Assembly: GCA_965224085.1 (NCBI GenBank)
Contig: CBDCYI010000011.1
Coordinates: 832,001 to 896,000 of the forward strand
Direction: 5' to 3'
Origin: Candidatus Marinacidobacterales bacterium
Lineage (GTDB): Bacteria > Acidobacteriota > Vicinamibacteria > Marinacidobacterales > SMYC01
DNA: 64,000 nt
The translations under genes and the position numbers were made by a program. Below are positions 7,237 through 10,172 of the stretch, piece by piece (positions within the stretch are counted from its first letter, which is position 1; each line of letters starts with the position of its first letter). Below the pieces are notes generated by a model. It ran no database searches. It was not told where the DNA came from and worked only from the letters and a program-made list of their open reading frames with translations.

Positions 7237-7658
7237 GTCACAGATCCTAGGCGATGCCGTGCGGGACCACCACCTCTCATCCGACCGCGCGCCGGCTGCC
7301 GAGCCTCATTTAGATCCCGTGTTATTCGGATTCGCAGCCAGGGTACTGTGTCCGGAACGAGTTCGCTAAGGAGCTGGGCGAGTTTTCCGGTCGTCGGGAA
7401 AAACTCAACGACGTCCATCACGACGTCTCGGTATAAAATCGAGTTCATGACGAGATTCGAAGCGCGCTTCGGGAGTCGTGAGCTCTTCCCGAACCTCGAA
7501 TCACGCGCCTATTTGAACCACGCGGCGATGTCGCCTTTGTCGCTTGCCGTGTGCGAGGCGATGCGTGCATGCATGGACGATTACGGCCGACGAGGTCTCG
7601 GTGCGTTCTTCTCGTGGCACGAGCAACGGAAGCGGCTGAAAGACAAGCTAGCAACATA

Positions 7659-7784
7659 GACTCCTCAATCAACACCTTTCTCAAAAAAGTCTTCCTCAGA
7701 CATACGGTGACGAGGTCTCGGTGGGTCAGAGCTGCATATCTGGACTCCTCAATCAACACCTTTCTCAAAAAAGTCTTCCTCAGA
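7659..7784 (+). repeat. exact 42-bp direct repeat (duplicated IS right end)
   Basis: GACTCCTCAATCAACACCTTTCTCAAAAAAGTCTTCCTCAGA at 7659-7700 and 7743-7784. Confidence 0.95.
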
Positions 7785-7980
7785 GCTGCTCGTCCAAATC
7801 GGTGACGAGTGGGTCAGACTGCAAACATATCTACGGCCTCAGTGAGGAGCGTCTTGGGTGCTCCGGGCCATGACGGAAAATCCGCGCGCGAGGAGCCAAT
7901 CACTTTGAGCGACCTCTGAGGGCCAGTGTTGCTATCGGCTTGACCCCGCGCCGGTCCGACCGGTACGCCATCAGTTGGAT
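7785..7980 (-). ncRNA. putative bridge RNA / seekRNA of the IS1111-type element
   Basis: Lies downstream of the transposase. RNA-sense UAGCAACACU (7934-7925) is identical to the reconstructed target, and AGAUAUG (7832-7826) matches the donor junction. Boundaries are approximate. Confidence 0.75.
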
Positions 7981-8036
7981 GGGTATCGTCGCAGCCTCTG
8001 TTGGAAGGGAAGAAGGAAAACACGAAAGTGGAGCCT

Positions 8037-9055
8037 CTATGCGGCCGCGGGCACCGACTGGAATTCACTCTCGCGGGTGGAGACGGCCCAGACTATCCGG
8101 GCGAGTTTGTCGCGAGCGGTCCCCGCGAGCGGTGGCGGACCTTCCGCGCCCAGGCGCGGAGCTTGTCGGGCGGGCTCTTGCTGACGTTGGCCGCTCGGAG
8201 CACGGCGCGTCCGCCCTGCGTGAGGAGCGTACGGAGGTAGGAGTCGCCACGCTTGGTGATGCGCCCGAGGCGGCGAATGTCACCACTGGAGTTCTCTTTG
8301 GGAACGAGGCCGAGGTAACTCGAGAAGCGGCGTCCCGATGGGAAGCGGCGCAGATCCCCAACGAAGCCGACGATGGCGGTCGCGGTCAGAAGTCCGATGC
8401 CGGGAATGGTGAGAAGTCGTTGCACCTCAGGAAGCTGCTTGGCGAGCGCCTTGAGCTCGTGCTCGATGCCAGCGCACTTGTCCTTGAGCTCTCGAATCTC
8501 GGAGCACGCATCACGCAGGTGCGGACGGAGCACGTCGGGCAAATCAGAATCAGCGTCTTCGACGAGCTCGGAGATGGCGGGCACGACGAAGTGAGCGCCC
8601 TTGGGGATGAAGAGTCCGAGCTCGCGCAGGATCCCGCGTACGGCATTGATGCGTGCGGTCCGTGTGGAGAGCCATCCTGAGCGTAGGCGATGGAGCGCGG
8701 CGAGGGTGTGCTGGCGCACGGACTTGATGGGCACCGAAAGAATCTCCTCGTTCCGGTAAGCCTCGAGCAAAGCTTTGGTGTCCGCGCGGTCGTTCTTGCT
8801 CCCGCGTCGATACGGCCTTACGAGGTGAGGTGGGAGCAGGACGACGTCGTGTCCCAACCGTCGCAACGTCCTTGCCCAAAAGTGAGCCGAGCCGCAGGCT
8901 TCGAGAAGCACGGTGGCAGCGCTCTGTTTCGCAAAAAACGACACCAACTTGGGTCGACTCACACGGAGTTGCTTGGACACTTTCCCCGCTTCGCGCGAGA
9001 TGGCAATCTCGAAGACGTTCTTTGCAAGATCCACAGCGATCGTCGTATCTTTCAT
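8037..9055 (-). pseudogene. IS110 family transposase/recombinase, frameshifted near the C-terminus
   Basis: IAVDLAK, LEACG, KNDRAD and GLVPKENSSG motifs. The tail KLARIVWAV...PAAA* (stop 8037-8039) lies in a different frame after ~8110. Confidence 0.88.
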
Positions 9056-10132
9056 TCGGACTCCTCCTTTTTCGATGCGTTCTTTCGACTGACTTTGGCA
9101 CATCGATGCCGTCTATGTCAGCGGAGGAGTCCATCCCATCACTCGTCGGGGGAGGCCCCTAGGATCTTGCCTTCGTTTCGAGCACCACGGAGGGGCTCGT
9201 CAAAGTGGCGCTTTGTTTTCCATGGAGAAAAGGTGACCGCATCGTTGTTTTCGACGGTGAGTTCCCGACGAACGTCACCCCCTGGCAACGCGCGGCGAAG
9301 CTTTACGAGCTCGAGATCGTCATGCTTTCGGCGGCCGAGTTTCGCGAGGACGAAGAGCGGGCTCTCGCGAATTTTTCGGAAGCGCTCGAGCGAGGCATCC
9401 GTCTCGTTGCTGTGAGCACCGTCGAGTTTCAGACGGGCTTCCGCATGCCTGTCGTCGAGTTGAGCCGTCGGTGTCATGCGGCCGGGGCCCAGATTTGCGT
9501 GGACGCGATTCAAGGTCTCGGCGTGGTGCCGATGGATGTGGTGGCCGAAGGTACCGACTACCTCGTATGCGGCAGCCACAAGTGGATGATGGCCATCGAC
9601 GGGATTGCCTTCGTGTACGCGGCCGCGGACAAGGCGGCAGCTTTGCGTCCACACGTCGCGGGATGGCTCAGCCACGAGAGTCCGGTCGCGTTCTTGCTCG
9701 AAGGCCCCGGGAATTTGCGCTACGACCGGCCCATTCGTTCGGGCATCGACTTTTTCGAGTCGGGGAGCTTCAGCACGGTCGGTTGTGCCGCTCTCGAAGC
9801 TTCACTCGATCTGCTGCTTCAGCTGTCTCCCGAAGCGATCTTCGACCACGTGAACGACTATCTCGATGCGCTCGAGCCGAAGCTCGTGGAGCTCGGTTTC
9901 GAGAGCTTGCGCTCGGCGAAGCGCGAGCAGCGGTCGGGGATTTTAAGCTTGGCACCTCCCGCGAATATCGACGTCATGGCGATCCAAAAGGCGATCGGGG
10001 AGGCGGGCATCTTCTGTACGGCTCCGGACGGATATCTGCGCTTTTCGCCGCACTGGCCAAACGCGCTCGATGAGATAGAGTACGTGGTGGCGAGCGTCGA
10101 AGCTTCGATCGCCGTAGCATCGAGGGGTGCTC

Positions 10133-10172
10133 ACTGATGCACGGATGTATTGATGCACTGATGCACTGATAC
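10133..10172 (+). repeat. imperfect 8-bp tandem repeat (ACTGATGC)x5
   Basis: actgatgc acggatgt attgatgc actgatgc actgatac. Confidence 0.8.

Follow-up and report, generated by a model that had tools for sequence, protein, structure and literature searches.

Positions 7735–9141 (minus strand) of the window analysed here, a 64,000-nt stretch from the genome of a sponge-associated acidobacterium (6.87 Mb, 12 contigs), very probably represent one copy of an unnamed insertion sequence (IS) of the IS1111 group, whose recombinase is guided by an RNA encoded between its stop codon and its right end. The anatomy of the element, the flanks of its copies, the structural covariation of the RNA, the covariation between guides and flanks, and the homology to the non-coding region of the named element ISPa25 were observed directly. 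From these observations, we infer that the RNA is made, binds to the transposase, and directs recombination.

In the proposed mechanism, a DEDD/serine recombinase would be guided by an RNA of about 160 nt, comprising a small 5′ hairpin and two stem-loops with large internal loops. Loop 1 would read the target, with its 5′ side, UAGCAACACU, pairing with the top strand AG-TG-TTGCTA. Loop 2 would read the abutted ends of the element in the same order, its 5′ side pairing with TG-ATGGGA of the left end and its 3′ side with the right-end sequence AGATA-TG. Recombination at the shared TG would then insert the circularised element with no longer duplication.

Transposase and ends of the element

The transposase gene of the window copy (8093–9055, minus strand; likely start MKDTT at 9055, with the open reading frame (ORF) listing extending to an ATG at 9103) is frameshifted near its 3′ end. 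The 336-residue ORF in the window matched PF01548 (DEDD_Tnp_IS110, the RuvC-like domain at the N terminus; E = 5e-11) and, at the C terminus, PF02371 (E = 1e-25), and an intact paralogue gave essentially the same values (E = 4e-11 over profile positions 2–152 of 155, and E = 1e-25, respectively). The intact transposase consists of 344 residues, from MKDTT to ...VPAAA, and reached 306.8 bits with the NCBIfam equivalog NF033542, “IS110 family RNA-guided transposase”, for which the cut-off is 140. Its C-terminal domain aligned with the ISCro4 (E = 4e-8) and IS621 (E = 7e-8) transposases in the PDB. IS1111 transposases are described as proteins of 330–350 residues with a GL-P----S(t)G motif (Siddiquee et al., 2024, PMC11187229); the intact protein carries GLVPKENSSG, which fits GL-P----SG and whose SG falls on that of ISCro4 in the alignment. 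The non-coding DNA amounts to about 300 nt from the stop codon to the right end (302 nt in the BLAST-defined copy) and to about 88 nt ahead of the start codon. The two Pfam domains, NF033542, the 10-bp subterminal repeats and the long 3′ non-coding region agree with the IS1111-type identity that an earlier note on this DNA had proposed, and on these sequence features the element is assigned to the IS110 family, IS1111 group.

The ends were defined from copies elsewhere in the genome. A BLAST search returned 25 places related to the IS, many of which are partial copies; the seven full copies, with both ends, were aligned. Together with their flanks, these copies place the complete IS at 7735–9141 (minus strand), 1407 bp including the TG/CA dinucleotide at both ends; the other six are 16 bp longer. 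The dinucleotide of the left junction (9140–9141) is TG in the transposase sense, CA on the plus strand, and that of the right junction, placed from the copy flanks, is likewise TG in the transposase sense (7735–7736). The BLAST blocks extend to 9143, 2 nt past the IS, because the last two target bases, AG, are common to all sites. In the transposase sense, the left end reads TG-ATGGGA-TGGACTCCTC... and the right end reads ...GAGGAGTCCA-GATA-TG. Subterminal inverted repeats with the sequence TGGACTCCTC lie 8 nt from the left tip (9124–9133, minus strand, in the transposase sense) and 6 nt from the right tip (7741–7750, on the plus strand), and the same motif is present in the homologues and in ISPa25. 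Subterminal inverted repeats of 7–17 bp have been reported to distinguish IS1111 from IS110 elements (PMC11208160).

The plus-strand flanks read ...gctagcaaca up to 7656 and ctcgtcgg from 9142. When 7657–9141 was excised, these flanks joined to CTAGCAA-CA-CTCGTC, which guide 1 matches at 10 of 10 positions. The rejoined host frame is continuous: the upstream part ends in ...KDKLAT, and 9142 lies 63 nt (21 codons) before the ORF at 9205. The frame of the rejoined gene indicates that the empty site has a single copy of the dinucleotide, and the in-frame joining with one CA indicates insertion in the absence of a multi-base target duplication. As seen from the transposase strand, the right target half is 7648–7656 (plus strand, ctagcaaca) and the left target half is 9142–9148 (plus strand, ctcgtcg), of which only GAG-TG fits the consensus TCAAG-TG.

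The earlier note had regarded 7657–9141 as the stretch whose removal restores the target. This is correct for the empty site, as shown by the in-frame rejoining and the 10/10 match to guide 1, and incorrect for the extent of the IS, because every other copy stops at the equivalent of window position 7735. The remaining 78 bp (7657–7734, minus strand), here termed Fragment A, form a degenerate right-end remnant that separates the IS from the true right target half, which adjoins the outer edge of the fragment. Fragment A has a tip that is short by 4 nt, a 7-nt insertion and an internal deletion.

A predicted structured RNA with putative guides

In the minimum free energy (MFE) fold, the non-coding region forms two stem-loops, both of which have a large internal loop beneath a hairpin cap. 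Related loci, 60 in all, were collected from acidobacterial and a few other metagenome-assembled genomes, with protein identities of 45–99%. An alignment of 16 distinct RNAs from these loci gave a consensus fold with covarying stems, and the covariance model built from it (R1) comprises 157 positions and 41 pairs. R1 found 31 matches in the related loci, of which 24 were distinct, and 17 in the window genome, and matches were present in four of 150 other sampled genomes of the phylum. In the window, R1 matched 7809–7968 (minus strand) with 141.8 bits, a score equal to that of 11 other copies, and thereby delimits a bridge/seekRNA-like RNA of about 160 nt.

Across the 24 distinct sequences, 84.9% of the cells of the 41 pairs were paired and 20 of the 41 pairs showed compensatory changes, in an alignment that was fitted to R1 and therefore favours the structure. 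None of 500 shuffles reached any of the five measures of the structure test, slid controls were all far lower, and an independent MAFFT/RNAalifold run gave the same stems. The 5′ hairpin (7951–7963; CCGG/CCGG), with two compensatorily changed pairs, had 92.7% of its cells paired. A long-range helix enclosing both loops, which is present in the MFE fold and in R1, was poorly kept, with 63.6% of its cells paired, and the RNA is therefore described with the local hairpin. This hairpin is followed by stem-loop 1 (7886–7951; helices 2–4), the putative target-binding loop, which is built of two stems (outer and inner), a large internal loop and a hairpin cap, and by stem-loop 2 (7821–7885; helices 5–7), the putative donor-binding loop, all on the minus strand. 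G-U pairs were conserved in the transposase sense, at columns 35/83 in 23 of 24 sequences and at columns 112/175 in 22 of 22, which argues for an RNA read from the transposase-sense strand. A scan of 7400–9400 against Rfam 15, with E values up to 10, found no family for the RNA and returned four unrelated hits far below their gathering scores.

The positions that vary among the RNAs fall in the internal loops of the conserved scaffold, and in the window copy these loops contain the four putative guide segments, all on the minus strand. Guide 1, on the 5′ side of loop 1 (7925–7934; UAGCAACACU), is complementary to the top strand AG-TG-TTGCTA. Guide 2, on the 3′ side of the same loop (7901–7910; GCUCAAAGUG), runs in the sense of the left target half followed by TG (consensus TCAAG-TG), apart from one additional A. 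In loop 2, the 5′ side (7871–7880; UUUUCCGUCA) can form 8 bp, including two G-U pairs, with the left-end sequence TG-ATGGGA, and the 3′ side (7826–7833; UAGAUAUG) agrees in sense with the right-end sequence AGATA-TG, at seven of seven positions. All four segments agree on TG. The four strings that the earlier note had picked out were found where it had placed them, namely UAGCAACACU at 7934–7925, CUCAAAGUG at 7909–7901, UCCGUCA at 7877–7871 and AGAUAUG at 7832–7826. The note had also read them as the guides of a two-loop RNA for target and donor. This reading is supported by the order of the guides, which is that of IS1111 seekRNAs, by the motif at other insertion sites and by the covariation of guides and targets among homologues.

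Guide 1 gave the strongest signal. A rough hand estimate for the chance occurrence of a junction-spanning 10-mer in 300 nt, 9 registers × 2 strands × 300/4^10, is about 0.005. Across 16 distinct guides, the longest complementary runs between guide 1 and the right flank summed to 109, compared with 68.3 ± 5.0 when permuted, and none of 20,000 permutations reached 109; when wobble pairs were allowed, the corresponding values were 123 and 80.4. Thirteen of the 16 guides fit their own flank at least as well as any other flank. Repeated guides were left out of this comparison, as were four rows with the right tip at IS-internal DNA or Fragment A (three rows of locus L028 and the window copy) and five rows in which the right flank was absent or shorter than 20 nt (L074, L079, L049, L090, and L060).

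The other three segments gave smaller signals. For guide 2, the three bases beside the dinucleotide track the flank (AAG, CAG, ATG, ATC, and CAT), and a bulge of 1–2 nt further out is needed in several elements, including that of the window. The T and C at −5 and −4 are conserved in three unique left contexts of the window genome, which supports the bulged pairing UC(A)AAG-UG. Across clades, the 3′ side of loop 2 reads AGAUA or AUAUA in step with the right end, and 99 of 20,000 permutations reached the score observed for this pair. For the left end and the 5′ side of loop 2, the observed score was reached by 400 of 20,000 permutations when Watson-Crick pairs alone were counted, and by 35 of 20,000 when wobble pairs were allowed. 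In the window element, UUCCGUCA forms 8 bp with the left end, including the two G-U pairs, with a run of three when wobble is disallowed, whereas in the 95% relative at locus L028 all eight pairs are Watson-Crick.

Several observations weigh against an RNA-guided recombinase. The covariation of guide 2 with the left flank, which the earlier note had named as a check together with that of guide 1, was modest (327 of 20,000 in a gapped-alignment permutation test); at the window's own site, guide 2 matches only GAG-TG, and its match to the consensus needs the bulged A. The left-end match of loop 2 in the window element requires its two G-U pairs. Individual relatives fit poorly as well: the guide-1 run is only 4 at loci L078 and L088, where 8 to 13 other flanks fit better, depending on wobble, and 5 at L066, where the site has a 1-nt insertion. 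The junction dinucleotides on the left and right differ in the relatives, and both 3′-side guides end in CG. RNA production is only hinted at, by metatranscriptome contigs, and neither a sigma-70-like promoter nor an intrinsic terminator was found on the relevant strand in 7600–9250, by a scan that is uninformative for an acidobacterium. Finally, the permutation counts overstate independence because homologues share ancestry, although the guide-1 covariation, judged from the aligned loci, is far beyond this concern.

Some of these points would also fit a 3′ non-coding region that has no guide role and acts as a structured 3′ untranslated region or as a DNA-level site for recombinase binding or stability, with the matches arising by chance or from mis-set ends. 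Such a region would account for matches of guide 2 and loop 2 that are short and involve a bulge or wobble, for the missing promoter and terminator in 7600–9250, and for support for an RNA that is limited to metatranscriptome contigs. However, guide 1 varies together with the right flank across 16 guides (0 of 20,000 permutations), the variable positions lie exactly in the internal loops of a covarying scaffold, the ends are fixed by seven full copies and by the in-frame rejoining of the host gene, and homology links the RNA to the non-coding region of ISPa25, an IS1111 relative. A region devoid of guides is thus hardly tenable, compared with the RNA-guided recombinase.

The metatranscriptome data are as follows. 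The IS is present in sponge-metagenome runs, and parts of it also occur in Logan contigs of three metatranscriptome runs (two studies), for which DNA carry-over is possible. One contig of 161 nt spans 7819–7979, close to the R1 match at 7809–7968, and a second one continues past the right end into DNA that flanks a different IS copy; the contigs show neither strand nor ends. IS parts that lack contig cover in runs X17–X20 are uninformative, and X20 is taken as RNA by guess. The two terminator-like sites found in 7600–9250 are both on the plus strand and equal in number to the shuffle expectation. In the literature, transcription is expected to start from a promoter that forms at the circle junction (PMC11187229).

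For the relatives (loci L048–L092), the left junction dinucleotide was TG in 17 of 19 cases, and the right one was CG in 14 of 26 and otherwise varied with the site; the 3′-side guides ended in CG in 24 of 31 cases for loop 1 and in 26 of 28 for loop 2. This TG/CG asymmetry fits a scheme in which the left dinucleotide belongs to the element and the right one to the target, with no duplication (PMC11187229), but a TG circle junction would then face the loop-2 guide with a C-A mismatch. The window element is free of this problem, because its dinucleotides are all TG. The CA core proposed in the earlier note therefore holds for this element, as TG in the transposase sense, whereas a symmetrical 2-nt core for the whole clade is ruled out by the junction table of the relatives.

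Insertion sites in the genome and in relatives

The left junctions of the IS in the window genome all end in AG-TG (11 of 11), and seven of the 11 read TCAAG-TG, four of these in one repeat context and three in unique contexts. When two close relatives were included, about 40 distinct left contexts were obtained, nearly all of which read GGTGCTTC(C/T)GCCATCAAG-TG (...CATCAAG-TG) with unique outer DNA. Right flanks that are not internal to an IS read TG-TTGCT(A/G/T) or near variants. The target motif, whose presence at other insertion sites the earlier note had proposed as a check, was thus recovered in the flanks of other copies. As its target, the IS prefers the first ~25 bp, at the terminus of a repeat of about 110 bp (GGTGCTTCCGCCATCAAG-TG-TTGCTA...), upstream of which the DNA is unique. 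The window site is in a coding gene outside the repeat; it departs from the consensus on its left side (CGACGAG-TG) and fits perfectly on its right.

Because nearly all sites of the lineage lie in one repeat family, the target could instead be picked mainly by the protein, through the repeated palindromic host element, with the RNA as a scaffold or processing signal and the complementarity as a secondary feature. The conservation that extends beyond the guide footprint possibly reflects recognition by protein or of structure, and a preprint abstract on ISPpu10 reports a “sequence-structure dual-match”. On the other hand, the window copy and several others outside the repeat share only the guide footprint, as seen in the three unique TCAAG-TG contexts and in the 10/10 guide-1 match of the window site, and relatives with other guides sit in correspondingly other sites. 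In addition, six copies of the repeat in the genome (C4:505282, C4:1952466, C5:703068, C5:1866534, C9:866873, and C9:842503) read ...CATCAAGTGTTGGTG..., with TTGGTG where occupied sites have TTGCTA, and none of the six is occupied. These comparisons make target choice mainly by the protein highly unlikely.

Two further observations concern the sites of relatives. At loci L048, L051, L055–L066, L083, and L108, the sites end in ...TGTTAGGC or ...TGTTAGCC (...GTTAGGC or ...GTTAGCC), and ISPa25 at locus L108 lies between a blaOXA-17 cassette and qacEdelta1. Both endings resemble the core sites of integron attC sequences, and these locations would be consistent with the attC-targeting IS1111 subgroup. 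Loci L088 and L092 belong to one genome (G095) and have the same kind of site (...GAGGGGTTAG), with guides 1 that differ by one base. One of the two copies thus no longer fits its own flank, which may represent guide drift after insertion.

Related systems, right-end arrays and the state of the window copy

The closest named relative found is ISPa25, with 47.4% protein identity over 99% of the protein. R1 matched the 3′ non-coding region of ISPa25 with 84.7 bits (E = 4e-18), and the two elements share the same subterminal repeats and end layout. The non-coding region of ISPa25 is reported to hold a predicted seekRNA similar to the one of ISKpn4, an RNA that was co-purified with the ISKpn4 transposase, and in IS1111 seekRNAs the guide complementary to the top strand is located 5′ of the guide complementary to the bottom strand, an order that is reversed in the IS110 type (PMC11187229). 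The window element resembles ISPa25, ISKpn4, and ISPst6 in the longer non-coding region downstream of the transposase gene, the protein of 330–350 residues, the GL-P----SG motif and the guide order. It differs from them in its host, an uncultivated sponge-associated acidobacterium, and in having its own guides and its own target (TCAAG-TG-TTGCTA, at the end of a chromosomal repeat).

For 93% of IS1111 elements, a bridge RNA has been predicted in the right end (Durrant et al., 2024, PMC11208160). The bridge RNA of IS621 (structures 8WT6–8WT9) likewise has two loops, one for the target and one for the donor, and the same logic of left and right halves on the bottom and top strands that overlap at the core. 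In contrast to IS621, in which the RNA is encoded in the left end, the window RNA is in the right end downstream of the transposase gene, the two guides of each loop stand in the opposite order, the element has long subterminal repeats, the protein likeness is confined to the C-terminal domain (E = 7e-8), and the relatives have unlike left and right junction dinucleotides. ISPpu9 and its Ssr9 RNA module (Pares-Guillen et al., 2025, PMC12288879) are similar in that RNA modules outnumber transposase genes and partial modules occur alone or arrayed. As differences from that system, the window RNA bears guide-like loops, and the arrays in the window genome consist of right-end pieces in tandem, with the joints exactly at the right tip.

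The element thus belongs to an already described kind, the RNA-guided bridge/seekRNA recombinases, and the picture of their mechanism is unchanged. RNA-guided recombinases of the IS110 and IS1111 groups are programmable tools for DNA insertion, and each natural orthologue with readable guides is one more data point for design rules. The present element provides many natural insertion sites, together with 16 homologues whose guides and sites change together, and extends the ISPa25-like lineage to uncultivated sponge-associated Acidobacteriota. At the off-consensus site of the window insertion, a full match of the top-strand guide and about 5 nt on the other half sufficed.

The window genome contains 17 matches to the RNA model and 11 left ends. 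Of about 21 right tips, 11 are joined exactly after ...CCAGATA plus TG (nine) or AG (two) to matching dinucleotides inside other copies. The resulting tandem arrays of right ends, some of which include an RNA gene, each end in a proper right target half; they are located at C9:514556-517319, C5:1163413-1163743, C4:1232216-1232928, and C9:653254-653820, and, in a related genome, at locus L028:2609-3852, which holds four RNA genes in tandem. Minicircles arising from left-end-like internal sites were considered as their source and rejected, since the join points share TG or AG and have little likeness to the left end or the target. A junction of the right end, TG and the left end was absent from the right-end junctions of the assembly, in which no search aimed at circles was made.

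A tentative and rather doubtful explanation for the arrays is that the right-end module, consisting of the RNA gene and the right tip, propagates semi-independently of the transposase gene. If so, the recombinase would repeatedly insert at the right junction, which keeps the 8–10 nt of the right target half read by guide 1, or at internal pseudo-sites; arrays of guide-RNA genes would build up, and the bridge-RNA gene would act as a selfish sub-element. As a linked point, the TG/CG asymmetry of the clade hints that the crossover may be asymmetric, in contrast to IS621 with its symmetrical CT core.

For the window copy itself, the frameshift claimed in the earlier note was borne out by the alignment of full copies. 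Six of the seven hold 16 bases (columns 1015–1030) that are absent from the window copy, and the difference is surrounded by a rearranged stretch (alignment columns 1009–1050). This places a net deletion of 16 bp with local rearrangement at approximately 8100–8135 (minus strand), which shifts the frame, so that the protein ends early with a different tail, and removes a conserved C-terminal helix. In a contig from an RNA library, the canonical sequence forms a loose end at 8119. Five of the seven full copies have an open 344-residue frame, and one other copy besides that of the window is interrupted. The window copy is non-autonomous and could move only with transposase from intact paralogues.

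The gene that, from its sequence, is split by the insertion encodes a class-V aminotransferase: the ORF at 9205 matched PF00266 (E = 2e-31, profile positions 65–336), the 3′ part of the gene extends over 9142–10137 (plus strand), and the 5′ part ends at 7656. An in-frame TAG at 9160–9162 in the downstream part shows that the gene has decayed further after the IS insertion. This extra stop suggests an old insertion and, together with the frameshifted transposase and the degenerate Fragment A, would fit a dead relic, a non-autonomous decaying copy in which Fragment A is an old rearrangement. The RNA gene and both ends of the window copy are nevertheless identical to the consensus of the other copies, with the R1 score shared by 11 of them, and the five open frames could act in trans. 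The chances that the locus is such a relic appear evenly balanced, and a relic is compatible with an element that was inserted under RNA guidance.

Within Fragment A, a 15-nt string (7709–7723) is shared with the split host gene (7589–7603), 120 bp away, and has no further exact copy in the 6.9-Mb genome. It is the 7-nt insertion relative to the canonical IS sequence that creates this identity, and to judge from the sequence it looks like templated repair or template switching.

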